64,000 nt of DNA from Amphiscolops sp. MND2022 (taxonomy: Eukaryota), in NCBI GenBank assembly GCA_964187785.1, contig OZ076409.1, forward strand, positions 64,110,001 through 64,174,000, written 5' to 3'. The notes beneath the pieces were generated by a model. That model was not told where the DNA came from. It saw nothing but the letters and a program-made list of their open reading frames with translations, and did no database searches. Position 1 is the first letter of the stretch; the number at the start of each line of letters is the position of its first letter. Shown one piece after another: positions 14,816-63,514 of this stretch. The position numbers and the translations under genes are program-made.

Positions 14816-14871
14816 TATTTTGAAGACAAAAAGCAGTTTTTCGCCTACTTGTAGTTTTGTGCTCGTTCCAG

Positions 14872-15323
14872 GATGGGCTCATGTTGTGTGCGCTCTGTAC
14901 ATTCAAGAAGTCAGCTTCGGTGATATGTCCGCTCTGGAGCCGATCATCGTGACAAACGTGCCTAAAGAGAGATTCAAACAGACATGTTCTATCTGCACCG
15001 AGAGACAACAGACCCACCTAGCTGGTCTAGGGGCCTGTATGTCATGCTCTAAGTCAGGATGCAAGTCGGCCTTCCATGTCACGTGTGCCCAGGAAAAGGG
15101 CTTTCTATTTGAGGAACACGTAAACAACAACAGTCTGAATAATAACAACATCGATGGGCCCGATGCTTCTGCTTCCGTTGGGGGCGGACTGACCCCTCAA
15201 ACTAACGGGGAGAAATCTGCCACTTCAACCACACCGAACAGCAATGCCACCTCTCTCAATGGTGCATCTGGAAATGTCACTGTCAACTATCGCGGATACT
15301 GTGCATTACATATCACCAAACTG
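14872..15323 (+). CDS. MLLT10: AF10/AF17-family protein, zinc knuckle/PHD2 exon of the PZP domain
   Basis: GWAHVVCALYIQEV...CSIC...GACMSCSKSGCKSAFHVTCAQ...YRGYCALH; CCAG acceptor (phase 1), GTTAGC donor (phase 0). Confidence 0.93.
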
Positions 15324-19949: not shown

Positions 19950-20247
19950 TAAACATATCCATGACTTCGGCTGATTTAGGGTAGATAATTAGTATGAAAT
20001 TTGTCAAAAAGTTGTAGGTAATTCGGTAAAAACCTAGCAACAACGATAAGCCTCGATTTCGCTCTAAAATAGCTCAATTTAATTTTCAGATTTTTGGTCA
20101 CAGAAATTACCGCAGAAACAATGTAAACCAGATGAAATTCTAAGAAATTTTAATCCTGATGTTTTTTTGAAGTTTTTCATCCGGCTTCGAGAAATCCAAG
20201 TCTAAAATTGGCCCGCGGACGATTTCTGAACCACACTACTTACTGTA
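19950..20247 (-). mobile_element. MITE remnant related to 1793-2409
   Basis: Reverse-complement similarity around TAAACCAGATGAAATTCTAAGAAA and terminal TACTGTA. Confidence 0.45.
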
Positions 20248-23479: not shown

Positions 23480-23682
23480 GTAACTAAAAAAGCTTATAAC
23501 TTGACGACCAAATAACTATGGAAAATTTTATCACGTAAAAAGTTTACCCTAATGGTTGAAAGCAAGTTTAATCGTTGCTCAAGTTGAAGTCCGCCAAGAC
23601 ATGGTATTTTGCATAATTGTGGTTTTGTATTTCAAACTCATCTAATAAGTTAATTAGTAATGGCATTTTTGTTTGTTTTCAG

Positions 23683-24156
23683 ATAAAATTCTGATGATCG
23701 AAAACAAAGGTATCGAGTCGTGGTCTCAAGACCAGTTTTTGCACGCCGCGTCCTCGAAGTATACTGCAGTTCCTGTTTCCAACTTGAAGCCTGAACGATG
23801 CAATTCTTCTACCAACAACGCAGCAAACGGCAACAACACTCTTATACACTTACAGTCTTCCGATTTATGCGACCAATATAGGTATGGTACTAACCAGAAC
23901 GCGCTGTTGCACCATTCAAACGTTCCCTTGGATGCATCAACGGGGACGACAGCGACGGGTGACAACCTTGGACAGCATAAGATGACGACATCAGCTCGTG
24001 GCAGCAGCAGCGGTGGAAACTCTTGCTCGAATGGCATGCGAGTAACCTCCAACAACTCTTCAGGGGGCCATTCTCTAACTTCCATGGTCAGCCTATTGGA
24101 AGAACAATGGAATCAAGGATCCCAGTTTTTGATGCTCCAAGGGAAGAAATACAACA
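23683..24156 (+). CDS. MLLT10: AF10-family protein, exon with the octapeptide motif (OM)
   Basis: TTTCAG / GTAAGT, phase 1-1; SLLEEQWNQGSQFLMLQG matches AF10 QLLERQWSEGQQFLLEQG. Confidence 0.92.
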
Positions 24157-24632
24157 GTAAGTTATCTTGTGTCCTCATTCATTCCAGAGCTCCCGTTGTC
24201 GATCTCATTCTGCTGCCTGATTGATTTTCACCAGCGGAGGAAAAATCTTGTAGTATTCACACTGTAGATGGTTTCAAAGAAATTAAAGAATTGCAGTCAT
24301 ACTGAGAATGTATCGAAAAATGAATCTAAACTGATGATAAGACTAGAACGTTAAACGGTTCTTTTTAATCTCTTTAATCTCTAGTATAACTATGAAAGAA
24401 AAATGATACGGTTTTTGCTAGAATTTTGTTGGAATTCACGTGGCTGTCATGCAAATGTTTTCGAAATTTCATTTGTCCATGGTTGTTGATTGATATATTA
24501 CAGTTATGGGATTATCGTATAATATAAGCGTGTTTCTCATAAGGTTTCAGTTTATCGTTTGAAATTTTTACGGCTTCAATTGTCTGTTTAATTTTTCTAG
24601 GTAAAAGAAAAATACGTAATTGTTCATTTCAG

Positions 24633-25291
24633 TTCCTTCGTTGCTGTCCAGTTTGTACGAGTTGCAAATGGAGAATCGACAACTAGAGAGTGAACTGGCC
24701 GAAGTGACTTCTCGGAGGAAACAACTGCAGATGATGAACCAGCACCTCTCGATACCTTTGTCCCAAACTTCTGCCGCCGCCGTGGCCACCGGGGGTCATG
24801 GGCACAATGCTGCTGTCGCAGCCTCAACAAGCGCATCTTCTGGGGCTGTACACGTCACTGGCAACCCTCAAAGCCACGTTGCTGCTAATGCTGCCGCCAC
24901 CAGCATCGTATGTCCTACCGGGTCCATCGCCGTGGCAAGTGCTCCTAACTCGATGAGTGCCGGTGGCGCCGCGGCTTCGGCTCTTGCTATACACGCTCCT
25001 CACACAAATACTGTGAACGCTGGAACAAGCACAAACAACAACATTGACAGCATATCTATCGCAGACACGCCCATCCCAACTTCCAACACGGCGGCCATTG
25101 ATGGTATGCACCCAGGAACCGTGGGCGCACCTGCACTGTCCCAGAACTCTCAAGTTCTCGGGAGGTCCAAAATGGGCGGTGCTGGCGGACGAGGATCTGC
25201 GTCATTGACCAGTTCCTCTATGAACCCAACCACTTCTTCGGATGACTTGATACCCTCTAGTTTCCTGTTGGGAGCCAAAAATGTGAATGAG
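24633..25291 (+). CDS. MLLT10: AF10-family protein, leucine-zipper exon (DOT1L-binding OM-LZ)
   Basis: TTTCAG / GTGAGT; LLSSLYELQMENRQLESELAEVTSRRKQLQMMNQHLS matches AF10 MLKSLHQLQVENRRLEEQIKNLTAKKERLQLLNAQLS. Confidence 0.92.
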
Positions 25292-25620
25292 GTGAGTCAA
25301 ATTTATATGTTTAATGTGGCAAGGTTCTGATGATCTGGGAGGTGAGTTTCTCATCGTGCTCTCGGATGTAATTGTTTGACTTTGAATAGTCTGACCATAG
25401 TAATTCAGTACGCTCATGGCCTTTGTTTTGTTCCATGTCAATGGCATTAATTGAAATTCGTTGTCGGTCATCTTTTTTAGTATTTAAAAAAGTTGCTCAA
25501 TTAATATATGAATTCTGCTATTTTCAATACTTTGAATTTTGCAAAATACCTTGAAATTTTATTTTATTGTTGGAAAGTGGTTACTTCAGAGTTTGAGGTG
25601 AAGTGTTATTTATTCAATAG

Positions 25621-26209
25621 CAGGATACATCTCAGGCAGTAACAGCCATAGCTGCTGGCCTTATTCCTTATGACTGTCACAGTACCCCAACTCTGCGCCT
25701 GAATAACGGAGGCTCTAATGGCGGTGCATCTTCCCATAACCCTAACTCGTCCAACAGAAGGACTCCCATGACACCTTTACAGTCTCCAATCTCCACTAAT
25801 CCCTCTTCGATGTCAGCAGTGGCACCCTCTCTATGTATAAGTCCCAAAGACAATCAGAGTCTCAGCATCTCGTCAACAGGAGGAGGTGTGACACCCAACA
25901 GTGGGGTGACTGCTGGGTCACTGGGAGTGACGACTCCTAGCTCAGTTGTGACTGCCTCCCTAGTGCAGCAGCAGCAACAGCAGATGGTGGCCGCTCAGCA
26001 ACTGGCCGCAGCTGCACAAGTGTCTTACCTGGACCCATCGACGTACTCACTGCTGGCGCAGCAACAACTCGTCGCTTACCATCGAGCCCTGAGCATCTCG
26101 CAAAACACGTCGCCCCAAAACACCGCTCAGCCGGCCACCTCGCCCGTTGTTGATCAACTCACGCAAAGCTACAGACTAGCAGCCGCAGCTGCCGTGTCAG
26201 GATTAGATT
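25621..26209 (+). CDS. MLLT10: AF10-family protein, Gln/Ala-rich C-terminal exon
   Basis: TAG|CAG tandem acceptor (phase 0); open frame with polyQ; GTAAGC donor (phase 1). Confidence 0.85.
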
Positions 26210-26440
26210 GTAAGCATTTTACAAGCTTTCCTCCTTTTGATATCATGCAATGTGAATTGATGTATCTGAAAAATAAAGCTTAGTAGCTTGTCATCTCGAA
26301 AAAGTTTTCGCTGCTCAGTTTGTTATGCTGCTCCATTGTTTTAATTTTAATCGTTTCGGAAATAAACGTAAAATGGTCAGTTTTGCATGGAAATATTGGA
26401 CTGCTCAATAATGAGAGTCACATTTTTTGATTGGTTTCAG

Positions 26441-29349: not shown

Positions 29350-32300
29350 AGTCGGCGTTTTTATACAATAAAAAAGCCCGACTATTAGTCACTTTTTCAA
29401 GACAGACTCGAATGTGGCGAAAATTTTCATATCGTTCAACTAAACGAATATCTCGAAAACGCATCTAAGTTAATGCAAAGGGTCACCCATTCATTTTTAT
29501 TTTCCGCCCATATTTCATATGGGAAAGGAAAATATCGGGTTTTTTTTTTACAAAATTTGCCAAGAATTTATATCAAAGCTAAAAGGTTTCACCCATAGAA
29601 TTCAGCTCACATAAGTTTAGCTTCGTGGGATTTGTATTTGTGGAGATTTCCGGACTTTTTTAGTTGACCCCAAGGACCCCAGAATGACCCCAAATTAACT
29701 CAAAAATGACCCCAAAAGAGAATTTGCGTTTTTTACGTTTTAATGCAATTTTTGTCGAGTTTCCGATAAATGTCGTGGATTAGAATGTTGAAAAGATTCA
29801 CAAAGATAAGAACGCGTTGTCCAATAGTCGTTTATGGAGATAAATGCGGTTTTTTGGAAAGAAAAAGACCCAAAAAAGGACAAAGAAAACCAAAAATTTC
29901 CAGATTTTTAACGTTTTTAAGCAATTTTTGTCAAATTTTCGATAGAATTCGTGGACTAGATTGTTGAAAACGATCAACATGGTACACGTTTGTTGTCCAG
30001 TAGGCGTTTCCGAAGAGATAATGGCTGTTCTTTATTTGAAAAATGTCTCAAATTGACGCCGAAAATGACAAAAGTCCCTAAGTTTTCCATTTTTCAAAGT
30101 TTCTACGCTTTTTTCGTCAAATTTTGGAGACTTCGTGGATTGGAATGTTTTACGGGGTCAAAAAGGAAAACGTTGGTTGTCCAGTAACCATTTTTAAGAG
30201 TTTATTGCATTTTTCTAATTGAAAATGTCTCAAATTGACACTGAAATTGACAAAAAACACAAAATTTTCCAATTTTCAAAACAAAGTTTTATGCATTTTT
30301 TGTTAAAGTTTCACAGACTTCGTGGATTGGAATGTTTTAAAGGGTCAACAATGAAAAAATTGGTACGTCCCGTAGTCTTTAATGAAGAGATAATTACAAT
30401 GTTCTGCTTGAAAATGTCTCAAATTTACACCGAAAATGACAAAAGTCCCAAAAGTTTTCAATTTTCAAAGATTTCGTGCAATTTTCTAAATTTTTGACAG
30501 ACTTCGTCAATTGGAACGTTGAAAAGGGTCAACAAGGAAAATAAGCGTTGTCCAGTATGCTTAGAAAAGAGATAAATGCAGTTTTTCAATAGGAAATTGT
30601 CCGGAATCGACATCGAAAAAGACCAAATTTCGAAAAATTGTCAAATTCATTTTTTCCACTTTTTGTCAAAATAACGATAGACTTCGTGGACTACAGTGTC
30701 TAAACGCTTAAGGCATGGGCAAACTTGTTGTTTCGGTGAGCTTTCGTTACGAGACAAGTTCAATTCGTAAAAGAAAAGGGCCTCAAATTGACATGAGATG
30801 TCAAAATTTCGAAGTTTTTGTCGTTTTTGATTTAATTTCTGTAGATTTTTCGAAAGATTTGTTCTAAGTTCCCCAATCCACTCAACAACGAAAAAACGAG
30901 CTATGCAATTTTTTTCTTGAAGAGAAAATTACAGTGTTTTGCTTCACAAACACTTCAGAATGACTCCAAAGGAATCAAAAAATTTCAACTTTGTTTTTGT
31001 GCAACTTGTGTACTTTTTGAATCGTTTTGGTGTCAGAATGTCAGCAAACGTTCAACAAAGACTGAACTCATATTCAATTAGGCTTTCAGGGGAATATTTG
31101 CAGATTTCGATCGGAAAATGGCTGAAAAGTGACCGTAAAAAGTCGAAAGCTTGAAAATGTTTGTCGATTTCTGACATTTTCAGTGAATTTTTATTTGAGA
31201 TTGGAAAATTTTGGTAAACTAAAGGGTTCAAAAAGCTCGCGTTGATTAAACTAGGCCCGGAACACGGTTTTTAAGAATGCCTAGTTTATGGTCGGAAGTT
31301 TAGTCAAAATAGTACAATTATTGGAAAAATTGAAAATTTTCAAGTTTTTTCTTACATTTTCAGGCAGTTTTTTGTTGATTTTTTGACCTACTTCCTTGCA
31401 TAAAATGGTTTTAAACACTCAACACTAACTCTTCCGGGTATCTCCAGTAGGCATTTTTCAAGAGATAACTGCATGTTTTGTTGGAATTGGTCTCAAAAAC
31501 ACCCAAAAATTCATGAAACAACAAAAAAGCACGTTGTTTGACAAACTAATCCCATTTTTTGTTCAAGCCACGAAAGTTTTTAACGAAGAGAAATTCCAAT
31601 GACCTCAGCGTTTAAACAATAAGGTATTCAAAACGCAATTGTGGGAAAAAGAGGCATGAAGTTCATCGAGTTTACAGCAAGGATGTCAAAGTTTCGAACT
31701 TTTTTTATTTTCGACAACATAGTCCCAATTTTGGACACTTTCCTAAAATTTACTTCAATCAGAAATATCATAGGCTAAGGATTGAAACGTCTAGCTACCG
31801 GTAGTGTTCCGAAAAGACATCAGACAAGTTTATTCGCACAACTTTCAAATGCTTCACTTGAAAACGTAAATTTCAACCTCATTTGTCCAATTTTTGTCAT
31901 TCAAAAACCTCCAAGCAAATTCACTAGAAAGGGAGTACATCTTCCTAAGAAAGATGTTTCGTGCTAAATCGTGAGTTAGAATGGTGTAAACATTCAACAA
32001 CAGCTAAACTCGGTGTCCAGTAGGCTTATTTTTGAAGAGACATCTGTAGATTCATTTTCGAAAAGTTCCTCAAATTGACCCTAAACTTGTCAAATCTATT
32101 TGCAGTTTTTGACACTTCTGGTGAAACAATGTACAATAATAGAACAAACCGGGGTTGCTCAACTTCCCTAAATTTGAAACTGACCTAATTTCAAGCTTTT
32201 ACTATTTTCTCTTTTACCATTTATGGCGAAACGAGTTTCAGCTCGCGAAACTGTTTTTCTCAAGCCGAAATGTGCTATGAAAGCAAGGGGTACACTTTGA

Positions 32301-35052
32301 CCAAATGAAAGTTTCGGAAAGACGTACAGAGTCGAAAAAAACTTAAATGAGGTATTTCCCACAATCAAAAAGAAAACTCATCAGTTCCACATGATCAGAA
32401 GTAACAAAGAGGTCACCCTCAAGACTCGGTAAACTTGTTTCCTTTACAGAAAACCTCAAAAACTAAAAATTTTGAAAATTGTTTTTAAAAAAAATATTTT
32501 CAAAAAATTTATTGAAAACTTTCTTTTTTCTCGGTAAGTCGCATAGTGCCGAAAAAACAAAAAGTGACCAGCTCTCTGAAATAATAAATTAGGGGTTTCC
32601 TTTAAAATGGGGTACGATGAATCAAAGTTTTCTTTTCTTCGAACTTATTGGCGTTTTTAGTGCATTGGCTTATTCTTTAGCCTCAAACTTATGTAGTTGT
32701 AAAACAGTTCGGGGCGGAAAATATCCCGCTGCTCAGCGGGCGTCTTATTTTCCTTTTTAACGTAACGCAAAACCGGACGAGACTGAAAGTCCTCCTTTTC
32801 GATTTTTTTTTGATAATTTGCTTTGCAACAAAATGGATGTCAAAAATACCAAAGGGTCCCCTTTTTAAACTTTTTGGCACTATGAGACTGTTCAATTCAT
32901 CATTGTTCGTCGTTTTTTCGAAAATTTGCTGTCTCCAAAGTGTCCCCTTTCAATTTTTTCGATATTTTGCAACAAAATGGATGTTAAAATCCCAAAGCGT
33001 CCCCCATTTACACTTTATGGTACTATGAGACAGTTCTCATTTTTCGTCTGATATTAGGCTTTGTCAATATATATCCACCAATCCACGAATAATATTTTTC
33101 AATACTGTCCGAATTTTTAGTCGGCGCTTTTCTTAAGAAAAGAGCCCGACTATTACAACCACTCGTTTTTTTAGTCGGCGCTTTTCTCAAGAAAAGAGCC
33201 CGACTCTTAAAGTCACTCGTTTTTTTATTTTAAGACAGACTCGAAGCGACGAACGTTAAAATTAACGTTCAACTACTAAATACAGTACTACTAAAATACT
33301 GGCAGCGCATTTGAGATAGTGCAAAGGGTCCCCCTTTCAGTAAGTCCATTTTTATCGTAAGATACAAAACAGGACGAGACTATAGTGTCCCCCTTTGAGT
33401 TTTTTTCGGCACTGTGCGACTTTTTTTTCGAAAATTTTTTTGTCCCCAATGGGTCCCCCCTTCGAGTTTTTTGATATTTTGCAACAAAATGTATGTTAAT
33501 AAATTTCCAAAAAAAATCTTTTGCGCTTTTTGAGCCTTAGATATGGCGCCGACTTTAGACGTTCCCGTCTTGTTTTATTTAAGACAGACTCGAAGCGACG
33601 AACGTTAAAATTAACGTTCAACTACTAAATACAGTACTAAACTACTGGACCGGTAAAGGCAAACGGGGAGCGCATTCATCTACTTTTTAAACGTTACCTA
33701 CAAGCCCGGACGGGACTAAAGGTTCCCGCCTTTCGATTTTTTTCGGCACTGTGCGACTTTTTTTCGAAATTTTTTGAAAGATCCCCCCTTTGAGTTTTTT
33801 TTATTTTGCTACAGAATGCGTGTTTGTAAATCAAAAAGGGTCCCCCTTTTACATTTTTCGGCACTGTGCGACATTTTCCGAAAGAATTTTTTTTCGAAAT
33901 TTTCAAGTTTTTTTCCAAAAAAATGTTTTGCGCTTTTTGAGCCTTAGATATAGCGCCGACTTGAGACGTTCCCGTCTTGTTTTACGTTATATTTGAAAAA
34001 AAGGCGTTTAACTAAAGAGGAGGTAGAGGCTCGAAAAAATTGCGCTATATCCGAATTTTTGACGTTATATCCGAAGTAATTTGTGTTTTACTGAGAAAGT
34101 GTAAGTTCGAAACAAGACGGGAACGTCTAAAGTCGGCGCCATATCTGAGGCTCAAAAAGCTCAAACTTTTTGAAATTGTAAAAGGGGGGACCCTTTGGGT
34201 TTTTTGAAAATCCAATTTGTTGCGGGGTGTAACGTCTCAAACTTCGGATATAGCGTGCTGGCCCAAATGGGAGCGCTTTTTCAGCCTCCGCCTCCTCCTT
34301 GGTATAACGAAGTATAATTCGGATATAACGTCAAAAATTCGGATATAGCGTTTTACTCAGGATATTACGTCCAAGTTTCGGATAGTTTTGGAAAAAAATA
34401 TTGGTAAATATATACTGAGAAAACCTAATTTCAGACAAAAAATAACAATTTTGAACAGTCTCATAGTGCCGAAAAATCTAAAAGAGGGGACCCTTTGGGA
34501 TTGTTCAATATCTATTATGTTACAAAATTTTCTAAAAATTGAAGGGGGGACCCTTTCGAGACATTAAAAAAATTTCGAGAAAAAAACGAAAAATCGAAAA
34601 CTAAGAATTTCTAGCCAGTCTCATAGTGCCAAAAAACTTGAAATGGGCTTTTTGAAACTTCAGTTTGCTGTAAAATATCGAAAAACTTGAAGGGGGACCC
34701 TTTGGAGACAAAAAAAAGTTTCGAAAAAAAGTCGCACAGTGCAGAAAAAAACTCAAAGGGGGGACCCTATCGTCTCTCATTTGTCCCACCACGCTGCATC
34801 CGAACTTCTGACGTTATACCCGAAGTTAATTGCACTTTGCTAAAGAAGAAGCCGATGTAGCTCCCATGTAGCCCAGCACGCTAAATCCGACCTTTTCAAG
34901 CGTTTTCCGAGCATGAAAGGCGCCCTTTGGCTGTTTCGATACTTTTATGTGAGTTTTGCATTTGAAAAAGTTCTGAGCAAATTTCAATGTTTTCTTTGCA
35001 ATTTTTGTTGAGCTTTAAGTAGGGCGCCGACTTGAGACGTTCCCGTCTTGTT
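29350..35052. mobile_element. Nested stack of family A and family B Helentron/DINE-like elements
   Basis: Family A start at 29350 is interrupted by family B 29497-32749; further family A starts at about 33119 and 33174 end at about 33981 and 33574; reverse copy from about 34111; another 3' end at about 35023-35052. Confidence 0.75.
29497..32749 (+). mobile_element. Long family B element with a larger satellite array
   Basis: Same termini as 16893-19204 (TTTTCCGCCCATATTTCATATGGG ... GGGCGGAAAATATCCCGCTGCTCAGCGGGCGTCTT); more units of about 180 bp. Confidence 0.8.
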
Positions 35053-38800: not shown

Positions 38801-40314
38801 CCATTATTCGCCGACCAATCAAAATGCGACAGAGCGAAAACCGAAACAAAGAATGGTACATCCGAAGAACAAAATGAGAAACGAGGAAACCAATCACATA
38901 CGAAAAGAACATTCGAGAACAAACACGGCGTGAACAAAAATCAACAAAACGAAAAGCTACATCCGCTGGACTTTGTTTGGTCGGGATGTGGCGAATACTG
39001 CCCGTTGTGTAAAATGGTCAAACCGGCGTCGCAAACCGCCGGGCAGTCTGATATTAGCACGCTAAAGTCAAGTTGCTCACCGAAAGAAATTTTATGTTCA
39101 AATCAGGTTTCAAAACTTCAAAAATTAAAAACGGAACTTCCCGAAGTGGACCGCGAAAACTTCTATCATTGGAGCGCCAGAGACAAAAATATGAAAATTA
39201 TCCGCAGACGAAACAACACACAGGCTAATAGAGCAGAGAAACGAGTTATCCCCCTAGAAAATTGCGACGCCGGTTTGACCATTTTACACAACGGGCAGTA
39301 TTCGCCACATCCCGACCAAACAAAAGAAGTGGAGCAGAAATAGCCGACATTGATGAAGAGATTATGCGGAGAGTGAACCGATTGGGCTGCGGATATCAGC
39401 CAATAATAGAAGAACAAAACGAACCGGAAGAAGTACGGGAAGAAGGCGAACAGGAAATAGAGGCTACAGAGACGGAAGAAGATAGTGTGAATATGCGCGG
39501 CGACAATTTGCCAATAGTAGACATCAGCAATTACAACACGGAAAGGAAGCGCATTATATCCAGATTAACCGCATTCGGGGAAAACTGACAAACAACAAAA
39601 AGATAACGGGAGACCAGATTAAGAGCGCCGAATTCGAGTTCATGATGGACCTAAAAACGCTTATTGCCAAAACTGCAATCGATCCGGAGCTAACCCGCGT
39701 CAGGAATAGTATGCTTAGAGAAAACCGGGAGACAATCTCGGATGGCTACCGGACTGTCTTTGACAAGCTGTCCATCAGATGGGGATTGGTCTTTGTTGAT
39801 GACCAAATCGTAGTGCCAATAGACCTAAGACGACGACTTGTGAACATCCTACACTTCGGTCGATCCGGCATAACGAGCATAACGAAAATGACATCAGAAG
39901 CAAAGATATTCTTGTGGCCCGAAATTAAGCAGGATATCGACAACAATGTGGAAGACTGTACAGCCTGCTTTGCATCAGGTAAAACCTTAAATATCAATTA
40001 CCGAAAAAATACTACGGAAAGCTAGAAAAACTAACCGAACCCGGCCAAGAAATACAAACTGACTTTTTCGGAAAACTACACAACAAACACATACACGGAG
40101 AAGAACAAATTCTAATAGCGGTAGATAGATTTAGTAATTGACCGACTGTAAAAATTTGTAAAACGGCGGAGACCAAGGAGGTCATAAATTTTCTATCGAG
40201 TAACTTTAATTTGTATGGAATACCCGAAAAAAATATCCGATACGGGGGAGCGATCGTTTCCAAAGTGTATCAAAAATTTTGCAAAAACCGAAATATTGAA
40301 ATTGAATATTGCAC
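35809..40314 (+). mobile_element. Decayed, 3'-truncated Ty3/Gypsy element of the WLDD family
   Basis: LTR end GAATAGAACA at 35980 followed by PBS TGGTGCAGTCAG; frameshifted gag (CNKCGMKRH..C), FIIDNGS, IDLDYAYGQM, AWLDNII, RNase H, integrase zinc finger and start of core; no 3' LTR; LTR start is approximate. Confidence 0.88.
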
Positions 40315-49900: not shown

Positions 49901-50097
49901 ACGAACTGCTAAACATTCTTAGAACAATCGATTAGCAAAATATATGTTTTATTGTAGATGTATTTGCTCTGTGGAAATTTTACTTGAATTTACTTGGCTG
50001 CTTCAATGGTTTCCTGGTTTTTCTGTTTTATGATTTGTCGCTTTACCAGTTTTTTAATACAATGGTATCATGACATCGTTACAACCACGTTAACAAC

Positions 50098-50304
50098 TGT
50101 AGAATAGAGCATGGTAAAGGTCACTATGTCATGTAAGATTACATAATTTCATACCATACTGTCTATGACCATATTACATAATGTACCTGCTAACATAGTA
50201 CTGGAGATTACTGTATATCTTAACGACACAAGAAATTTGGATACAGTTACAATACAGTATTACATTCCCTGACTCCTTTTGAATATAATCGATAGAATAC
50301 AACA
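50098..50304 (+). repeat. 5' LTR
   Basis: TGTAGAATAGAG...GAATACAACA, identical to 55895-56101. Confidence 0.96.
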
Positions 50305-50316
50305 TGGCGCAGTCAG
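50305..50316 (+). other. Primer-binding site, tRNA-Ser type
   Basis: TGGCGCAGTCAG directly after the LTR, complementary to a tRNA ending CTGACTGCG-CCA as in invertebrate tRNA-Ser; variants at 35981 and 59087. Confidence 0.75.
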
Positions 50317-50317
50317 A

Positions 50318-53300
50318 ATGAGTCAAAAGAACGAGACGAACCCGATAGAAGTATCAAGCAGAAACTCCTCAAGCGAAGAACCCGGAGAAAAGAAGGGGAG
50401 ATCAACAACACACCAAAAAATAACGTTACCCATATTTGAGAAGAAAACCATCCAAGAGGCCAAACTATGGTGGCGACGATTTATACAATATGTCAAAATG
50501 ACACAGAAGATCGATTTAAACAGAATGACAACGGACAAGGAGATTATAGAAGAATACAGAGAAGAACTGGAGATAAAAATAAAGGATATTTTTATCTGGG
50601 CCCTAGGAGAAGAAGCGGTCACCGAAATGACAAAAACAGTGAGAGACAATGACCCAAACAAAATGAATATAAATCAACTATATTCATTATTTAGACTCCA
50701 CTTCATCCCAGAAAGAAACAAGTTCCATAGTCGAGCCGATTTTTTCGGAATAGTACGGGAACCCAATGAAACAGCCGAAGATGTTTGGACCAGAATTCTC
50801 CAGACAGAGAAAAATTGTGAATTTGACAACGTTACACCAGCCGAGCTTATTGCATCGAAGTTCCTGTCACTAATTGGAAGGTCAACGGGAGACTATGAAC
50901 TAAAGAAAAAGATACGGAAAAGCAACATGACAATTGAAACCATTACCGATCTTATACATGAGTACATGTATGACCGATTAAATGATTCAAACAACTCAAA
51001 CGATGGAAGAAATGTAAAACACGTACAGGAAAGGCCCCAAAAGAGAAAGTGGTCTGAGAAATCCAGTTACGAAAGGAACAAGAGAAGACCGGAATATCAG
51101 AAACAAAAATACAAAGATAACCGGTGTGGACAGTGCGGAGCACCTAACTGGTCAAGACAACACGTTTGCCCTGCCAGGACGGTAGAATGCAGAAACTGTA
51201 AAAAGAAGGGACACTATGAAAAAATGTGTAGACTCCCAAAAAGAATACAATACGTGGATAAAATATCATCCTCAGCTGAAGAAGACAACTGGGATTACAA
51301 CAAAATACAAAGTATCAACAACAAAAAGAAAAAAGAAGATTTCTTCCACGCAACGCTACTGGTCAACGACGTACCAATAAAATTCATAATAGACAGTGGA
51401 TCACCAGTCACACTAATACCACAAAAGCTTTTCAAGGGCACTTCAGAGGTGACGAAGCTAAACACAAACTACAAAGATGTAAACGACAACAAAATTGAAT
51501 TCCGGGGACAAACATTAGCAACGGTGAAAACAAACAATACGACGCTACAATTACCACTGCTAATTACTAAAGCAAACATAACACCGTTAATGGGACTAGA
51601 CTGGATGAACCGGCTAGGTATAACTCTTAACACAACAACGGAAGATGTCAAAATACACAACATCAAACTGGACGAAACCCAAAAGAAGATCCTAAAATTA
51701 AAAAACGAATTCAAGGACCTATTTTATAACAACACGGAAATAAAGAATTTATCAGTAAAGATAAATCTGAAAGCAGACGCAAAAATAATACAACAGAAAG
51801 GCAGACCAGTACCGATCCATTTGCAAGAACAAGTAGCCAATGAAATCAAACGATTAATAAAGAACGGCTATCTTGAAAGAGCAACTGAGATAACCGAAAA
51901 TTGCTTTGTGAGCCCCGCGGTAGTTACAGTAAAGAAAGACAAATCGATAAAAATTGCCTTAGACTCAAGAAAACTGAACGAAGCAACAATAAAAAGAAAA
52001 GCACAAATGCCAAACATGGAAGAGCTGATATCGAGAATATCACGAAAAATATCCGAAGAAAAAGAAGGCGAAATATGGCTAACAAAACTAGATTTTGATT
52101 ACGCATACGGACAAATCAAACTGGACGATGAAACAAAAAATCTCTGCATATTCACCATTACAGGAGGAGAATTCACGGGATATTACCGTTTCCTCAAAGG
52201 ATTCTACGGACTGGCAGATATACCAACCATCTTCCAGGAACGGATAGACAAAACACTAGAATTCAAACACCCCGCTTGGTTGGACGATATCATAATTGTA
52301 ACCAAAGGAACAATAGATAAACACGAAGCGGAGGTAAAAGAGACAATGGAAAACCTAGAAAAAGCCGGGTATAGACTACACCCAAACAAATGCGAATTCT
52401 TCAAACAGGAGACAGAATGGATTGGACACAAAATAGACCAAAACGGGATCAGACCTTTACAAGATAAATTGGAAGCCATCACAAAGATAGAAATACCAAA
52501 GAACGAAAAAGAACTAAAATCATTCCTGGGCGCAATCCAATACCTGGCAAAATACATAGAAAATTTGTCAGCACAAACAGATATCCTCAGAAAATTACTG
52601 AAAAAACAAAATGAATGGAATTGGACACAAGAACATACGGAGGCATTCAACAACTTAAAAAAGTTAATAACACAACTGCCATGCTTAGCCCACTACAACA
52701 CCGATAACGAAAACATCCTAACAACGGACGCCAGTACAAAAGGATTGGGGGCAACACTATGGCAGAAACAAAAAGACGGAAATTTAAAGCCGATCGGATT
52801 TGCAAGTAGATTTTTATCGGACACGGAAAAAAAGTACGCAATAAACGAACTAGAATTGCTAGCCGTAGTGTGGGGATTGGAACATTTTCGTCTATACATA
52901 TACGGAAAGCCAATCGAATTACTTACCGATCACCAAGCATTGGAGCCGCTAATTAAAAGGAATAGATCAAATAAAACTTATAGTGCAAGATTGACAAGAT
53001 GGCTGGATAGACTGGCACACTTTGATATCAACATAAAGCACGTCGCTGGAAAACACTTGACGTTGACGGATTATTTAAGTAGAAACCCTGTAGCAAAGCC
53101 GGTACCAATTGAGAATTACGATGAAGAATACGTAATCAATTGCATAATACCTCTACTGGAGTTCATTAACACGCATGGCAGCATCTCAGATGAAAAGAAA
53201 GCGACGATGCAAACGGAGAATAACACAGCGAAGCAAAACAACAACCAATCACAGACAAGAAGCGTGAACAAACAACCACTCACCATAAATCAGATAAACG

Positions 53301-55612
53301 AACTCAAGCCATTCCAAACTTTGCAAACGAGTGAACCAATTGATTCACAGCACAAATTCGACCACCGTTCAATCAACATGGATATTAAAACAATTGAAAG
53401 CATTGAAAAAGATGATCCATCAGAAGATACACTTCGACTTACCAGCAGATGGAGAGAAATTACCAAACCGGGCGACTATCGATTTACTCAAGGACAGTGG
53501 AGAAAATATGCACCCCCGAGAACATTGAGAGCCGAATTAAAAAGAATTGAAGTAGACCTATGGCAAAGAAGAAATAAACTAATCTGGCAGAAAATGGAGA
53601 AGAATAGTAAAGAAACACCGGAAGAAGTAGCACGGAAAAAGGAGTTCCACAGAGTAATTGAGAAGATCAGAAATCTGCCTAAACGAGACGAAGCAGGCCC
53701 GAGCAGCAGCAACACACAGCAACAACAACCACAGTATGAAGAAGAGAATATAAACGCAGACCAGAGAGATGAAACGGAAACAATGTCTTCCGACTCAGAT
53801 CAAACAATAGCCGTACCGGCTATAAACTTCAAACGATATCTGGGCGCAACCAGCGTGAGATACATTCAAATGGGAACCGCAAGCAAAGTACAATACGAAG
53901 ACAAGTGGGACTTAGAAGAAACAGTACGACAAGCAGAACAAAAATTCTCAACGGATCTGCGAACAATCGCAGACGAAACCACCAACGATGAAAAGCTACT
54001 AAAGACACTGGTTTGCCTTGAGAGAAGAAATTTCGAACAAATCCCCGAAGAGTACAAACAGTACAAAAACAACCTCTCGACACGATTTGGAGTCGTCTTT
54101 TACGATGACAAAATAGTGATACCAAAGCCACTTAGACAAACCGTCATTATGTTATTGCACAAAGGACACCCGGCGATCAACAAAATGAGCCACGCTGCCC
54201 GCCCATTCTGGTGGCCTAAACTGACAAAGGACATTCAAACAAAATGCAATGAATGCATCCCTTGCAAGATGTCAGGTAAGAGTATTAAACCACAATTACC
54301 AATGACTGAAATTAACTACTTACCACCGGCCGAAAAACCAAATCAGGAAATCCAATTGGACTTCATCGGACCAATAAGATTTAAGCACCGGAGATTTTAT
54401 ATTCTCATATCAATTGACCGATATAGTAGATGGCCGGCCGCATGCATATGCGAAGCTCCTAATAGCAAAACAGCAAAAAATTTCTTGGAACAATACATTG
54501 TACTAAACGGGATACCGCAGACAATAAGAACGGATAAAGGAACCGCCTTTACCGGAAGGGAATTTAGACAAACATGCAAAAATTTAAATATAAAACTAAT
54601 ATATGGCACGCCATATATTCATACAGCGACGGGATTAGTCGAAAGAGGAATAAAAACCTTAAAGGACTTGATGCGAACAAATTTACAAGATAAGTGCAAT
54701 TTGAACGAGGCACTATACCAAGCACTAATGGTGATGAGAATGACCGTCCACTCAAAAACAAAAGAATCACCATTTGAAAGACACTATGGCAGAAAGCCAA
54801 GAACGGAACTTACAAACTATCTAAACTTACCAACGGGTAATAATGAATATATTTCAGCCCAACCGGAGACCCTCCAAGTGTACTCCTTTAACAACGGAAA
54901 AGGAGGCTACGACCAACTAATCATGAAGACGCCCAGAAAACTCAAATGCGACGTGAGTAATAACTTTCCATACAAATTTTTGGAAAAAAGACAAACAAAA
55001 AACAAATTCGAGAGCGAATATCAAACAAAACCACAAACAGCGGTAGCTGGAACAAAACATACCATAACAACCGATACAAATAAAGTAATACACCGAAAAT
55101 TGGCAAGCAAACCCCTACCAAATTCATTTCAGAATCCACTCTCTCGCCGCGGGGAGAACAGGAGAGGAATAGATGGGCGATTCATACAGATGTCCTTACC
55201 ATCACTGGAGACGGAAGATACGGACGAAGAAGAAACCCAATCAGAGGGGGAAAAAGAAAGCACACCGGTAGCAGAAACATCGACAGAACAGATGGAAGAA
55301 GAGTTCGAATTCACGCCACCAACACCGATCAGAAGAGGTGAACCACAGTCACCAGGAGCAGGGAACTTGAAGCTTCATGTCGAAAACATGAATGAACAAC
55401 AACTAGAACAAGCTCTCGAAACAATCAACGAGAACCCAACAACCACCACAATCATCGACAATAACGGTAACGAAAATTACATAAAAACAGAAATAAATGA
55501 AATTACAAATACAAGCGAAAGAAGTAGTAATAATAACCAACCAATTAGAAGATCTTCAAGACTAAGAGCAAATAATCCAATAGTAAGATTTGGAAACCCG
55601 TTAACGCATTAA
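50318..55612 (+). CDS. Gag-Pol polyprotein (Gag with two zinc knuckles, protease, RT, RNase H, extra domain, integrase)
   Basis: CGQC..H.C and CRNCKKKGHYEKMC; IDSGS; LDFDYAYGQ / FYGL / WLDD; TDAS, ELELLA, TDH; HKGH...CIPC; LDF, TDKG, VER; first in-frame ATG after the PBS at 50318 (1764 aa). Confidence 0.95.
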   Translation: MSQKNETNPIEVSSRNSSSEEPGEKKGRSTTHQKITLPIFEKKTIQEAKLWWRRFIQYVKMTQKIDLNRMTTDKEIIEEYREELEIKIKDIFIWALGEEAVTEMTKTVRDNDPNKMNINQLYSLFRLHFIPERNKFHSRADFFGIVREPNETAEDVWTRILQTEKNCEFDNVTPAELIASKFLSLIGRSTGDYELKKKIRKSNMTIETITDLIHEYMYDRLNDSNNSNDGRNVKHVQERPQKRKWSEKSSYERNKRRPEYQKQKYKDNRCGQCGAPNWSRQHVCPARTVECRNCKKKGHYEKMCRLPKRIQYVDKISSSAEEDNWDYNKIQSINNKKKKEDFFHATLLVNDVPIKFIIDSGSPVTLIPQKLFKGTSEVTKLNTNYKDVNDNKIEFRGQTLATVKTNNTTLQLPLLITKANITPLMGLDWMNRLGITLNTTTEDVKIHNIKLDETQKKILKLKNEFKDLFYNNTEIKNLSVKINLKADAKIIQQKGRPVPIHLQEQVANEIKRLIKNGYLERATEITENCFVSPAVVTVKKDKSIKIALDSRKLNEATIKRKAQMPNMEELISRISRKISEEKEGEIWLTKLDFDYAYGQIKLDDETKNLCIFTITGGEFTGYYRFLKGFYGLADIPTIFQERIDKTLEFKHPAWLDDIIIVTKGTIDKHEAEVKETMENLEKAGYRLHPNKCEFFKQETEWIGHKIDQNGIRPLQDKLEAITKIEIPKNEKELKSFLGAIQYLAKYIENLSAQTDILRKLLKKQNEWNWTQEHTEAFNNLKKLITQLPCLAHYNTDNENILTTDASTKGLGATLWQKQKDGNLKPIGFASRFLSDTEKKYAINELELLAVVWGLEHFRLYIYGKPIELLTDHQALEPLIKRNRSNKTYSARLTRWLDRLAHFDINIKHVAGKHLTLTDYLSRNPVAKPVPIENYDEEYVINCIIPLLEFINTHGSISDEKKATMQTENNTAKQNNNQSQTRSVNKQPLTINQINELKPFQTLQTSEPIDSQHKFDHRSINMDIKTIESIEKDDPSEDTLRLTSRWREITKPGDYRFTQGQWRKYAPPRTLRAELKRIEVDLWQRRNKLIWQKMEKNSKETPEEVARKKEFHRVIEKIRNLPKRDEAGPSSSNTQQQQPQYEEENINADQRDETETMSSDSDQTIAVPAINFKRYLGATSVRYIQMGTASKVQYEDKWDLEETVRQAEQKFSTDLRTIADETTNDEKLLKTLVCLERRNFEQIPEEYKQYKNNLSTRFGVVFYDDKIVIPKPLRQTVIMLLHKGHPAINKMSHAARPFWWPKLTKDIQTKCNECIPCKMSGKSIKPQLPMTEINYLPPAEKPNQEIQLDFIGPIRFKHRRFYILISIDRYSRWPAACICEAPNSKTAKNFLEQYIVLNGIPQTIRTDKGTAFTGREFRQTCKNLNIKLIYGTPYIHTATGLVERGIKTLKDLMRTNLQDKCNLNEALYQALMVMRMTVHSKTKESPFERHYGRKPRTELTNYLNLPTGNNEYISAQPETLQVYSFNNGKGGYDQLIMKTPRKLKCDVSNNFPYKFLEKRQTKNKFESEYQTKPQTAVAGTKHTITTDTNKVIHRKLASKPLPNSFQNPLSRRGENRRGIDGRFIQMSLPSLETEDTDEEETQSEGEKESTPVAETSTEQMEEEFEFTPPTPIRRGEPQSPGAGNLKLHVENMNEQQLEQALETINENPTTTTIIDNNGNENYIKTEINEITNTSERSSNNNQPIRRSSRLRANNPIVRFGNPLTH

Positions 55613-55883
55613 CGTTTACAGGAAACACCGTTGACAAAATCAACGAGAAGCTCACCCAGTCACAGAGCGAATAAGAAAGGACCGGACGGAGAAGCAGAAC
55701 ACGCGAAGTCACACCCGGTGACAAACATAGCAGAAGAAGAGCGATGATCCAGAAGTATTACCTGGAACCTTATGTTCAACGATGAAAACTAAAACATTTT
55801 CATGTATCAATGTGTATGTGTGATAACTTTATTTTGTTATTAACCTTTGAGTTATTATTAACAGATTGTACAATCTGGCCCGT

Positions 55884-55894
55884 AAAGGGGGGAA
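55884..55894 (+). other. Polypurine tract
   Basis: AAAGGGGGGAA immediately before the 3' LTR. Confidence 0.9.
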
Positions 55895-56101
55895 TGTAGA
55901 ATAGAGCATGGTAAAGGTCACTATGTCATGTAAGATTACATAATTTCATACCATACTGTCTATGACCATATTACATAATGTACCTGCTAACATAGTACTG
56001 GAGATTACTGTATATCTTAACGACACAAGAAATTTGGATACAGTTACAATACAGTATTACATTCCCTGACTCCTTTTGAATATAATCGATAGAATACAAC
56101 A
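55895..56101 (+). repeat. 3' LTR
   Basis: Identical by eye to the 5' LTR. Confidence 0.96.
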
Positions 56102-56467
56102 ACAACCTTTGTTCAGTTTTGGCTACGGCTTAGCTGTAATCTTAACACGATTTCGCTGAGGGCCAAAACGGGTCGAACACATCGCTTTTAACATTCAGCT
56201 TTGTTCTGTTGAAATTGTCGATTTATTGAAACTATCGATGAGCCAGAAAAATTCTAAAGTTGTATAACAAAAAATCTGAAAGGCTTTTGATTGGTTCACC
56301 CGAAGTAATAAAAAAATTGGTTGGGACAAATAACTTTTGGGGTTTGATTAAAAACCGAAGCTTTGAGGCATTGTTTTTTAAAAAACAAAATGTATTTATA
56401 AAAAAGCAATATCTGCCCCAATCGAATGCCTTAATTTTAATTAATGTTTTCTTAAATAACTCTCTAC

Positions 56468-58891: not shown

Positions 58892-61800
58892 TGTAGAGGA
58901 CTAGGACAATTTATATTAATTAGTTTGCTGTTATAGTTGTGCTATTTCATGTATACGATGGTCTCTTATTAAATACCTGCCCACATAGTGCAGATGATAC
59001 AGATGATCATAAAGAGTCAGAACAAGATAAAGTACAGTTGAGTTTCAGTGAAATGATCTCTTTTATCAATGAGCTAGAATGCAACATGGCACAGTCAGCA
59101 TACCCTCAAAGTTATATGTGACCACAATAGCATTCAACAGCCGACAAGGAAGAAAACTCAAGAGATGGGGATAATACGATGACGTCAGCGGGAACACGGC
59201 AATGTGGACAACTGCTACCAAACGATACAATTAACAGGACGGCAGACCGGACCTGCACCCAAACGCTTACCATTCCCACATTGGAGAAGCAAGACCAAGC
59301 CAATGCGAGTGAGTGGTGGAGAAAATTTGTACAGTAATCAAAATGACAAAGATATCGACCTGTCAACCATGACGAACAGCAACGAGATACTACCACAATA
59401 CCGTGATCAACTCGAAGCAGATATAAAAGAATTGTTCATCTGGGTAATTGGACAAAATCACGGAGATGACAGAAACAGTCAGGGAAAGAGAACCGAGTTC
59501 ACCATCTCTGTACAAACTATGCACGCTTTTTCTATTGCACTTCACTCAAGAAAAGAACATACACCACAGCAGAGCCGATTTGGTTCCATCTGAAACGAGA
59601 AGACGGCGAAACCGCAGCAAACGTGTGGAAACGACTACTAGAAGCAGAAAAGAACTGCGAATTCGAACCAATAACCGCAGCAGAACTTGTGGGATCAAAA
59701 TTCCTGTCTTTTATCGGCAAATTAACTGGTGATTACGACCTGAAGAAAAAGATTAGAAAACACGATATGTCGGTAGAAGGAATAACCGTTTCAAAACAGG
59801 AGTATATGTAATTAGGATACAATTCCTTGATTGTTTTTATTTCAAGTTTTATTCACCATTTTATCTACCATCTTCTTTACATTAAGTAATCGGACTGGAA
59901 GTAAAAATACAGATGAAATAAGATGCAAAACTAATACAGCAGAAGGGAAGACCCATACCGATTCACTCACAACAATCGGTGGAAAAAGAAAAAGAGAAAC
60001 AAACAAAACAAGGTCATATTGAGAAAGTCAATAACATTGAAGAAAATTGCTTTGTGAGTGCAGCCCCTATGACGGTAAAGAAAGAAAAGTCGATAAAATT
60101 TCAAGAATTTCGAGAAAAATAGCAGACGGTACTGCCGATGAAATATGGATTTTAACATTCGACTTGGACTAGGCATACGGACAATTACTACTGTCGAAGG
60201 AAATCAGAAACTCAGGCCTATTTGCCGTAACCGGGGGAACTTTACCGGTTACAACCGCTTCCTGAATGGGTTCTACGGTTTGACGGATATACCAACAATT
60301 TTCCAGGAAAAGATTTACCAGACTCTGGAAATTAATCACCCAGTATGGTTAGATGACATCATTTTAGTAACAATAGACTCAAAGGAGGAACACATGAAAG
60401 AATTATTCGATCTCCTAATCAAGCTTGAAAAGGCCGGATAAAGACTGAGCGAAACAAAATCCAAATTCTTACAAACATAAATTGAATGGATGGGCCACAA
60501 AATTAACCAGGCCGGAATCCGACCTTTACAGGACAAATTACTGGCAATAAAAGTATCGAAACAACCGATCAACGAAACAGGAATTGGAATTTTTCTTGGG
60601 GGCCATCCAATTATTGTCAAAATACATCGACAATCTTTCCGCCCAAACTGATAGTTTGAGACAGTTACTGAAGCAAAGCAACAAATGGATACTGTCGGTA
60701 GAGCATTTTTTTTGAAAATTGAAACAAAAAATAACGGAAATACCTTGTCTGGCACATTATAACTCCAATTATCTAAACGTGATACCAACAGACGCAAGCA
60801 CAAAAAGCTTAGGGGCGACCCTATGGCAAGTACAGCCTGACGGAATGTTAAAACTGATAGGCTTCGCGAGTCATTTTTTATCAGAAGAAAAGAAATACGT
60901 CATATATGAACTCGAACTACTGGGAGTAGTCTTGGGCTTAGAACACTTTCGTTTATACATGAACGGAACACCTATTAAACTTTTGACGGATCACCTGGCT
61001 TCAGAACTGCTGTTCAAAAGAAAACCGCTCCAACAAAACCTATAGCGCACGCTTAACACGGTGGTTAGACCGATTAGCACACTTCACGATTAACGTGATT
61101 TATATCGCCGGCAAACACTTAGCACTCACAGACTTCCTCAGTAGAAATCCGGTAGCACCACCACAAATTGATGACGAATACGACGAAGAATACGTGATCA
61201 ATAGCATTCTACCACACTACAACTTCATCTCAAAACACAGTTGCCTTAGGAACCACAACAACCAATCAGAAATCGGAACAGAGAAAAGTGGACGGAAAAC
61301 AAATAACAAATCGCGGAAAAACGACGCGCGTTAACAAACCGCCTTCACAGCGACAAACACACACGCATTGATTCAAACGAATTGAATACTTCTAAGTGCA
61401 TCAAAATCACAATGGAACCAGGAACCTTTCCAGGAACCAAAGATTTTACGTAACGAAAGGAAAGTCATAGCAGGTTCGGTCTCGTTTTCTTGGAGGACAG
61501 AATTATAGTCCCGAAGAACCTCTGAGCCACGGTAATCAGCTTGCTGCATAAAGGACATCCCATCATCAACAAGATGATTCTAGCAGCCCGGCACTTCAGG
61601 TGGCCAAAGATGGCCGAAGCAATGCAGCAGAAATGCGAAACAAGCATCCCCTGGAAGATGTCCGGTAAGAGCGTTAAACATAATATACCTAAAACACGGG
61701 AAAAAATTTACCACCGTTGATCAGTCCGAACGAAGAAATCTAATTGGATTCCCTCGGGCCAATCGCAGAAAACACCTGCCGATTTCACATACTGCTGTCC

Positions 61801-63514
61801 ATTGACCGGTTTAGTGGATAGCCGGCGGCGAGTTTCTGTCAATACACTGACGGAGAAACGGCGGTGAACTGTCTCGAACAGTATTTCCAGCTGGACGGTA
61901 TACCGGAAACAATTAGAACGGATAAGGCAGTCGCATTCACAAGACGCCTTTTTTGTGACTTGCTACATTAAATTAATTTCGGAACACCGTATATACATAC
62001 ACCCACGTGCCTGGTAGAACGAAGAGTTAGAACACTGAAGGAAGAAAGTCTCCTAACGAACACAAAAGCAGGCGAACGGTTCGGAAAAGCCTTAGATTTA
62101 TCTTTAGATGTAATGAGAAAAACACCCCATACAAGATTTAAAAATCGGCATTCGAATTTCATTACGGTCGGGAATCAAACACGGAAGTTAGTAATCTGCT
62201 AAACCTGGACATCTTGAAGGATCTAACAAAAAAAATCCATTTCAGCGAAACCTGGTTTTTTACAGGTATATTTGTTCATCGTAGTTGGCGTTGTTTCTGA
62301 GCAGCTACTGATGAAGTCAAAGAAAAACGATAACGGAGTTTGTAATTACACCTTCCTTTTCTTAGAAAAAACACCAGAAACCTAAATTCGAATGTGCCTA
62401 CTCTGATGAACTAAATATAGCTATTTCGGGAACGAAACATACTGTAACTACACCGAATGGTAGAACTATACATAGGGAATGTATTAGTAAACCAATTACT
62501 GATTGTGATCAAGACTGTAACAACAACAGAGGAACCGGACTGAGAGGACCAGACGGCCGGTTTACAAAATCACCATCAAAACAGAACAAGGTGTACGTAA
62601 TCGTATCGGACAACGAACCCGAGACATCCCACCAGAGAAAAGCAGTCCGACGGTACCGGAGCAAACAGACAGCACCACGGTCAAAAAGAGCACGTTTTGC
62701 CGAGGCAGACCGAAGCTAATAAGAGACCGGCTGAGGTTAAACTCCACCCAGAGCTCACCGGGCAAAGCGGACAACACCGGCCCGCTCACCATAACCATCG
62801 CCAACAAGACATACACGGAGGTCGACCGTGCCATCGATGACGCTAGGCAAGCAAATGAAAAGCTTTATATCAGAGACGACAACGGTAAGGTGTTTAAAAA
62901 TCTCACTTCTTTCCCTGACACGGGGAAGAGAATAGCTTTAAAAACTCCAAACTAGATCTGGCTAGCAACCTGAGCTTTAGTACTGAATTAGAAGCAGACA
63001 CTAAACATGAGGAAGAAAAAATAGTATGCAGATCACAACCGCCAACAAAAACTAATGCAATTGTTAGATATATTAACCCTATTTGTCATAATTTTATGAA
63101 ACACCGTAGAAAGGCTGAAATTGGGAATAACACTGGTCAGACGGACATGGAGACAAACAGCCCCAACTAACCCAAACAGCAGACAACAACTTGACGTCAC
63201 GGGCAGATGCCCACCGTGACAACCATAAAAGCAAGGATCGGTCGCACGTTCTCAAACCAATGGACCATTGAATGAGTCACAACCATACACAAACTACACA
63301 GAGCCCCATTGGTCGAACAACAGCCAATAGTGAGGGGGGAAGGCAGAGGACTCAGACAATTTATATTGTGCTATTTTATTTATACGATAGTCTTTTATTA
63401 AATACCTGCCCACATAGTGCAGATGATACATTGATCATAAAGAGTCAGAACGAAATAAAGTACTATTGAGTTTCAGTGAAATGATCTCTTTTATCAATGA
63501 GCTACAATACAACA
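58892..63514 (+). mobile_element. Decayed two-LTR Ty3/Gypsy element of the WLDD family, inserted into a reverse family A element
   Basis: LTRs 58892-59086 and 63342-63514 (about 15 substitutions, 22 bp of gaps); TSD GTATA/ATATA; PBS TGGCACAGTCAG; PPT GAGGGGGGAA; fragmented gag, VWLDDII, TDAST, integrase; the flanks rejoin as a family A repeat ending at about 63822. Confidence 0.92.

Follow-up and report, generated by a model that had tools for sequence, protein, structure and literature searches.

Does a Ty3/Gypsy retrotransposon carry, within the coding sequence of its own integrase, introns whose removal would leave a second protein? The question is raised by a 64,000-nt stretch of the genome of Amphiscolops sp. 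MND2022 (assembly GCA_964187785.1, contig OZ076409.1, forward-strand positions 64,110,001 to 64,174,000; this whole stretch is called the window and its first letter is position 1), in which positions 50098-56101 hold a young Ty3/Gypsy element whose two long terminal repeats (LTRs) are both 207 nt long and identical. All features of the element and its relatives given below lie on the + strand. Its single open reading frame (ORF), Gag-protease-reverse transcriptase (RT)-RNase H-extra domain-integrase, runs from 50318 to 55612 (stop-to-stop frame 50273-55612, 1779 amino acids). An earlier, sequence-only reading had proposed that two in-frame segments of the integrase region are introns, and its description of their borders held. 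Intron 1 (54276-54857) follows an exon-end CAG, runs from GTAAGA to ATTTCAG with both borders in phase 1, and is 582 nt or 194 codons long; if retained, it encodes the whole DDE catalytic core, including the three catalytic residues D1363 (54359), D1421 (54533) and E1457 (54641), which we assigned via motifs and integrase alignment. Exon 2, of 95 nt (54858-54952), separates it from intron 2 (54953-55132), which runs from GTGAGT to CATTTCAG with both borders in phase 0, and whose 180 nt encode a conserved block of 60 amino acids. TTTCAG, said by eye to occur at these two places only, was counted exactly twice in the 5340-nt ORF, and the GGT codon at donor 1 is indeed rare, with GGT at 5 and GGA at 41 of 68 glycine codons. 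The splice sites read in relatives within the window, at 39979, 61665 and 62245, agree as well. Both proposed introns are real: they have been lost exactly in natural copies, and their synonymous codons beat the chance expectation.

Genomic copies that lack the introns

A search of the 1.07-Gb genome with positions 54000-55600 listed 1831 candidates, 40 of which were scored and gave 43 matches, and one genomic copy matched as two pieces meeting at the ends of intron 2. Used as a query, this natural intron 2 junction led to L061, an insertion that extends from LTR to LTR and is flanked by a 5-bp duplication of its own. L061 matches the window element at 98-99% identity and is missing precisely 54276-54857, 54953-55132 and 55467-55621. 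The third segment likewise extends from GT to AG and is intron 3 (155 nt, phase 1, GTAACG to GTTTACAG); it carries a terminal RRS-R...P..R-F motif and the Gag-Pol stop codon. L061 has an open frame of 1494 codons, the end of which lies in a new exon within the 3′ untranslated region (UTR), and the natural spliced frames of L274 and L277 are also open. Copies precisely lacking the proposed intervals, which the sequence-only reading had suggested searching for, thus exist.

Altogether, 16 insertions from three clades (tandem units counted once) lack at least one intron, the losses falling into six different combinations; the total comes from targeted searches and is therefore a count, not a rate. 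In clade A, introns 1-3 are missing from L061, L087 and L216, introns 1 and 2 from L220, introns 2 and 3 from L086, intron 2 from L062 and L063/64 and intron 3 from L089, and the truncated copies L219, L221 and L088 lack introns 1 and 2, intron 1, and intron 3, respectively. Clade C has L274, L277 and L275/276 without introns 1-3, junction 3 of L275/276 being offset by 2 nt, and L279 without introns 1 and 3; clade B has L282, without intron 2. Intron 1 was lost 10 times and intron 2 12 times, and for intron 3 there are 9 exact losses besides the offset case, with exactness for L087, L216, L219, L220 and L221 judged against relatives of ∼75% identity. Among the copies compared, the nearest relative is an unspliced copy for 13 of the 16, clearly (∼99%) for L061, L292 and L293 and narrowly for several; L087, L216 and L221 are nearest to one another, so that their independence is not shown. 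When clade C was searched for copies in which the exon end at donor 1 is not followed by G, 5 of 6 pattern hits were spliced copies. Tandem arrays of partly deleted elements with common LTRs also occur (L063-L065, L217-L218, L291), some of them formed from already spliced units.

Could the segments have been lost as DNA, by deletion or by template switching at short repeats, with no splicing involved? TCAG, a 4-nt repeat overlooked in the sequence-only reading, stands at both ends of intron 1 in the window, and hence loss of intron 1 alone could be a template switch. Repeat-mediated deletion does occur in the family, as in L217/L222, which we tried as a splice product and rejected for this reason. 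Intron 2, however, shows no microhomology at its ends in the window sequence and yet is the intron most often lost, and three separate exact GT-AG losses are found within single copies. Moreover, in a control for deletions of at least 50 nt at 77 clade A loci, 11 of 47 calls were GT..AG, all at the three introns, four were LTR-spacing artefacts, and 0 of the 32 other deletions was GT..AG, some of these 32 rows being repeated within tandem arrays and some intron losses found otherwise having been overlooked by the script. We give loss as DNA next to no credence. Judged from their sequence, the three segments are GT-AG introns, with donors and YAG acceptors that match host usage and with exact removal in RNA-derived copies. 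RNA initiated in the LTR is almost certainly spliced at each of the three introns, alone or together with others, and such RNAs have almost certainly been reverse-transcribed and inserted. Because copies without intron 1 encode no integrase, their integrase was presumably supplied in trans.

Selection on the splice sites and on exon 4

Nine intact-frame lineages, three per clade and 40-83% identical in protein, were picked from 34 long-frame copies, the others being near-duplicates, and across them synonymous positions are close to saturation. The codon is invariant in two of 34 invariant glycine columns: the common GGA in one and, in the other, the rare GGT at donor 1, which is present in 9 of 9 lineages and accounts for 14% of glycine codons elsewhere. 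Among 15 invariant serine columns a single one has an invariant codon, and it lies at acceptor 1, which reads TTTCAG in 9 of 9 lineages; acceptor 2 ends in CAG in 9 of 9. Donors 2 and 3 align in all 6 lineages of clades A and B, and in clade C they are at matching places confirmed by the spliced copies. With the protein held fixed and one lineage taken per clade, the chance values are 2e-3 for donor 1, 2e-4 for acceptor 1, 4e-2 for donor 2, 6e-4 for acceptor 2 and 2e-3 for donor 3. A fourth clade (D, 14 close copies) was examined after the predictions had been made; donor 1 and acceptor 1 were each present in 13 of 14 copies, the misses being places that the script failed to locate, and donor 2 and acceptor 2 in 14 of 14, and clade D also has a candidate intron 3 and the internal Met and CCAAT box described below. 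Free synonymous variation among family members, which the sequence-only reading had named among the findings that would speak against it, was not seen.

Two further observations concern conserved positions. A further lineage, P0271, shares 57% identity across the integrase region and retains the protein footprints SGK, ISA, VS and FQ as well as an internal Met. In the YDEEYV codons after RNase H (53117-53137), ∼110 nt upstream of the CCAAT box, TAC, GAA and TAC are invariant in 9 of 9 lineages, and this silent-site conservation possibly marks a further cis element.

Exon 4 (coding part 55622-55674, with TAA at 55672-55674) lies in the 3′ UTR of the unspliced ORF, and because removal of intron 3 takes out the stop codon, it becomes readable only after splicing. 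In clade C, where exon 4 lies beyond the Gag-Pol stop, 24 distinct sequences of 40 copies show 59, 54 and 188 variants at codon positions 1, 2 and 3 over 25 codons; these tallies, like those of the other clades given below, are counts among related copies and not independent events. In L236-L249 of clade B, the long frame reaches the 3′ LTR via intron 3 and exon 4 (about 1880-1900 codons), so that exon 4 is an overlapping frame there.

If splicing itself had been selected, for RNA stability, evasion of silencing or control of dose, the protein would be a by-product; the sites might also be cryptic and tolerated. This would fit the whole codon numbers of introns 1 and 2, by which RNA decay is also avoided, and the position of spliced copies as a dead-end minority, with 3 of the 27 insertions examined from the window's own subfamily being spliced. 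However, exon 4 of clade C keeps its peptide past the Gag-Pol stop, with a threefold third-position excess, and cryptic sites would not last at synonymous positions across 40% protein identity; we regard both versions as very improbable. By the measure of conservation, the splice sites and the spliced-only exon 4 are under selection, and the protein is very likely a selected product of splicing.

Modules kept and lost in the spliced protein

The coding part of exon 1 (53378-54275) covers the extra domain, which sits between RNase H and the HHCC finger, an acidic linker, an N-terminal extension of the integrase and the finger itself. Exon 2, retained in all readable spliced copies, has a basic stretch at its end, and exon 3 (55133-55466, 334 nt) carries a basic RG-x-DG-R-F motif conserved in clades A-C, an acidic tract and a short helix-strand block; in clades A and C, splice 2 brings two basic stretches together. 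Splicing cuts out the DDE core, the putative C-terminal domain and the end of the frame, where the RRS-R motif and the stop codon lie. The block encoded by intron 2 had no match in a Pfam scan, and from its position and its 51% between-clade identity it is probably the integrase C-terminal domain. The integrase derivative pictured in the sequence-only reading, with extra domain, HHCC finger, short exon and GRF/acidic tail kept and the catalytic core lost, was thus correct as far as it went, but the third intron had been missed, and with it the removal of the stop codon and RRS-R motif and the gain of a selected exon 4.

The extra domain belongs to a family of 551 unnamed and unannotated representatives at E up to 0.001, and homologue searches found unnamed ENA proteins down to 44% identity, followed by a gap to at most 34%. 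A metagenome scan with the single protein gave 122 pattern hits, 0 of them confirmed. In a predicted fold of the extra domain with the HHCC finger, residues 1-70 had predicted local distance difference test (pLDDT) scores of mostly 70-86; a Foldseek search gave no match at E up to 0.001, its weak top rows being foamy and Ty3 integrases, and VIA-align gave generic helical matches only (best Z 6.1). The RG-x-x-GRF pattern of exon 3 resembles the DNA-contact motif of NF-YA; the likeness found no backing in Pfam, where scans with the tail at E up to 10 returned neither NF-YA nor CCT.

The HHCC finger has a role in integrase multimers, and a protein that keeps it while losing the catalytic and putative DNA-contacting parts might act as a self-limiter, entering integrase multimers or particles and damping transposition, with splicing also lowering the dose of active integrase. 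Full-length spliced RNAs were reverse-transcribed and thus had been in particles, and Ty1 p22, reported as an internally initiated restriction factor, would be a precedent (PMC8458377). However, a poison has no obvious need for a novel domain of 190 amino acids and a selected new C-terminus, and the superfamily is very abundant, with 20,822 to 45,900 first-look candidates in the genome. Self-limitation is unlikely, though it deserves consideration. The retained HHCC finger, the conserved basic motif and the acidic tract would also suit a catalytically dead partner in the integration complex that tethers it to chromatin, as a targeting or structural subunit; yet the parts expected to contact DNA or nucleosomes, namely the putative C-terminal domain and the RRS-R motif at the end, are deleted by splicing, and such a role seems improbable.

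Where the spliced protein may start

The extra domain opens with Met-Asp (M1, D2; Met at 53378-53380), which is invariant in 12 of 12 aligned sequences, and the linker ahead of it has 18% between-clade identity. Within this linker between RNase H and extra domain, a CCAATCA box (53245-53251) lies 133-256 nt upstream of the Met in 9 of 9 lineages, and in clade D the distance is 109 nt; with one lineage per clade, the null value of the box is 2e-3 when codons are shuffled and 3e-2 when the protein is fixed. A GTGAAC-like word follows the box in most lineages (53260-53272 and matching linkers), with GTGAACAA in 5 of 9. Sequence comparison thus points to the box as a candidate internal promoter element and to the Met at 53378 as a candidate start codon, from which a spliced protein of 459 amino acids would probably make up most of the product. 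The alternative is that the protein is cut from the 1494-codon spliced Gag-Pol frame; all long spliced copies carry pol upstream, and therefore LTR-initiated RNA is certainly spliced. We also looked for splicing that would join gag to the extra domain, but found no strong conserved pair of donor and acceptor upstream of integrase, and no GT..AG deletion upstream of integrase in the 77 loci, a test that never-packaged RNA would escape. Conserved GT dinucleotides at 51479 and 52298 were rejected as donors, since Val codons explain both and an exon-end G is absent.

An internal promoter calls to mind the Tas and Bet proteins of foamy virus, and the product might be a transactivator or anti-silencing protein. 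The CCAAT box and the Met are conserved in four clades, the protein has acidic tracts and its RNA is multiply spliced, and foamy virus offers a precedent with its internal promoter and spliced tas/bet (PMC13220597). The likeness of RG-x-x-GRF to the NF-YA motif would fit as well. Against this stands the negative result of the Pfam tail scans for NF-YA and CCT, and we consider such a function quite unlikely.

A possible role in the export of unspliced RNA

As the best explanation of the whole, we propose that the integrase-less protein made from spliced RNA is the element's nuclear regulator, enabling unspliced RNA to be exported, and we give this reading a probability of about 0.5. The three introns are taken out of part of the element's RNA. 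Integrase requires that all three introns be retained, hence an RNA with three strong splice pairs must be exported and packaged, and the partly spliced copies in the mix show that RNA spliced at only some of the introns is reverse-transcribed as well. Fully spliced RNA would exit the nucleus by the normal route, and its product would be the natural early product to supply a bypass for intron-retaining RNA. In its simplest role, the protein would then license export of the unspliced genomic RNA, which would be packaged. CERV is needed for export of the unspliced RNA of Cer1, a Ty3/Gypsy element of Caenorhabditis elegans (PMC10309623, PMC3315495). By analogy with CERV, an export factor for unspliced RNA is among the roles that the protein may have, and we put it forward tentatively, at somewhat less than even odds.

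A number of results weigh against this reading. None of the copies was found to start at the proposed internal site, each long spliced one having pol upstream, and the CCAAT null is modest (0.03) once the protein is fixed and one lineage is taken per clade. Pfam, PDB-sequence and Atlas searches matched the HHCC finger only and gave nothing informative for the extra domain, and the predicted folds are weak, with a mean pLDDT of 43 for the spliced frame of L061 alone and of 58 for the extra domain plus HHCC finger with 36 rows. The clade A count for exon 4, of 42, 29 and 61 variants at the three codon positions, comes from 8 codons, and in clade B (21, 24 and 22), where exon 4 is a second frame on top of the long ORF, there is no third-position excess. 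Of 10 clade B hits of the donor 1 pattern, 0 lack intron 1: seven retain it with an altered donor, one of these being without intron 2 instead; L282 is among the eight alignable hits, and two are unalignable downstream. The TCAG at both ends of intron 1 in the window belongs here as well. Finally, retention of the HHCC finger fits an integrase partner or poison as well as an RNA factor.

A broader proposal, which we consider doubtful, is that this env-less Ty3/Gypsy superfamily consists of ‘complex’ retroelements that run a programme in two stages, with an internal CCAAT promoter, a triply spliced early gene interwoven with integrase and an export switch operated by a novel protein bearing a zinc finger. 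If true, a Rev-like switch would have been invented independently and built from the integrase gene, each intron being one integrase module.

The element and its surroundings

The window element lies between copies of a 5-bp target-site duplication, ACAAC (50093-50097 and 56102-56106). Its 5′ LTR (50098-50304, 207 nt, TG...CA) has the same sequence as the 3′ LTR (55895-56101), ahead of which lies a polypurine tract, and the primer-binding site (50305-50322) starts with TGG, as in 7 of 7 lineages compared. Pfam places protease at ORF residues 362-447, RT at 554-721, RNase H at 784-917 and integrase at 1283-1448, which is the Gypsy order, and the best solved-structure matches of the integrase are Ty3 and foamy integrases. 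By its LTRs, primer-binding site, polypurine tract, target duplication and domain order, the element is a Ty3/Gypsy LTR retrotransposon. The element may belong to the Mag clade of Ty3/Gypsy; of that clade's features, a single ORF and paired Cys-His boxes in Gag are visible here. In 7 of 7 lineages (window 50183-50189; L175, L226, L236, L242, L248 and L258), TACCTGC lies 46-89 nt from the start of the LTR; these LTRs are otherwise unalike, and 4 of the 7 include AGGTCA or its reverse. Both words are probably sites for host transcription factors.

Of the two decayed relatives in the window, the 3′-truncated one of clade C has its donor 1 at 39979-39984, and that of clade B (61665-62890) has donor 1 at 61665, acceptor 1 at 62245 and donor 3 at 62885, its remaining sites being degraded. 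The clade C relative contains a perfect 63-nt inverted repeat (38972-39324) that resembles a local inverted duplication. Elsewhere in the window there are diverged tandem repeats of 176-188 nt (17170-18970 and 29715-32507) and several dispersed inverted-repeat families. A host gene at 14745-26283 encodes a PHD-like zinc finger (Pfam zf-HC5HC2H); it is the AF10 of the sequence-only reading, which had assigned TTTCAG acceptors to five of its seven exons, and of the 5 long reading frames examined in this gene, 3 have TTTCAG just within their start.

Comparison with known systems

The usual annotation of an env-less Gypsy element is a single polyprotein and nothing more. Here a second gene lies in frame inside integrase, hidden from ORF and domain annotation and conserved across lineages that are ∼40% identical. 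In searches of open papers, mostly at the level of titles and abstracts, no description came up of introns whose removal takes out the integrase core of a Gypsy element. The sequence-only reading, which knew of no described Ty3/Gypsy isoform of this kind, is too strong on this point, since CERV of Cer1, the nearest known case, is a described spliced accessory protein, albeit of another layout. Cer1 (PMC10309623, PMC3315495) shares with the window element a single Gag-Pol ORF, several sense-strand introns of host consensus that are skipped for genomic RNA, and acceptors that read TTTCAG; in both, RNA spliced from several exons encodes a novel protein, and the sites are conserved family-wide. 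CERV, however, is made from a 2.4-kb RNA in which four exons of the gag region are joined to a fifth exon for the C-terminal half, whereas the window element has its introns within and after integrase and an HHCC finger in the product, and no gag splice was found. The spliced protein is not a member of the CERV family, its exons coming from the integrase region and not from gag; Pfam and PDB scans, made with no direct comparison with the CERV sequence, contained no match to CERV.

Foamy virus is a retrovirus with env whose accessory genes are not known to be carved out of integrase. Its regulatory proteins come from an internal promoter and spliced RNA (PMC13220597), whereas the promoter of the window element is a candidate only. 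The short gag mRNA of Ty1/Copia elements (EVD and relatives) is likewise spliced from the element's own RNA at conserved homologous positions, but in Copia removal of one intron around protease yields extra Gag and is coupled to early termination, whereas the window element keeps gag, protease, RT and RNase H in its spliced copies; the same source reports no comparable conserved splicing in Ty3/Gypsy elements of Arabidopsis (PMC5580714). Ty1 p22/p18, like the product proposed here, is an internally initiated, truncated element protein that acts on the element, but it is a truncated Gag, for which the available text describes no splicing (PMC8458377).

Among DNA transposons, En/Spm also obtains a transposase and an accessory factor (the pair TnpA and TnpD) via alternative splicing (PMC13547354). 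Ginger1, a DNA transposon with terminal inverted repeats, has introns in a Gypsy-like integrase gene (PMC2836005); these interrupt the transposase coding sequence, whereas the introns of the window element encode the enzyme and its ends are LTRs.

Taken together, the feature is real and akin to the accessory splicing of the Cer1 type, with an unusual architecture, strong genomic support and a function suggested by analogy. Re-inserted spliced copies archive transcript structure in the genome and can be read when RNA data are absent. They show that the RNA which a retrotransposon must package intact can hold several strong introns, and the element offers a second animal system, beside Cer1, for asking how an RNA of this kind evades splicing and retention in the nucleus.

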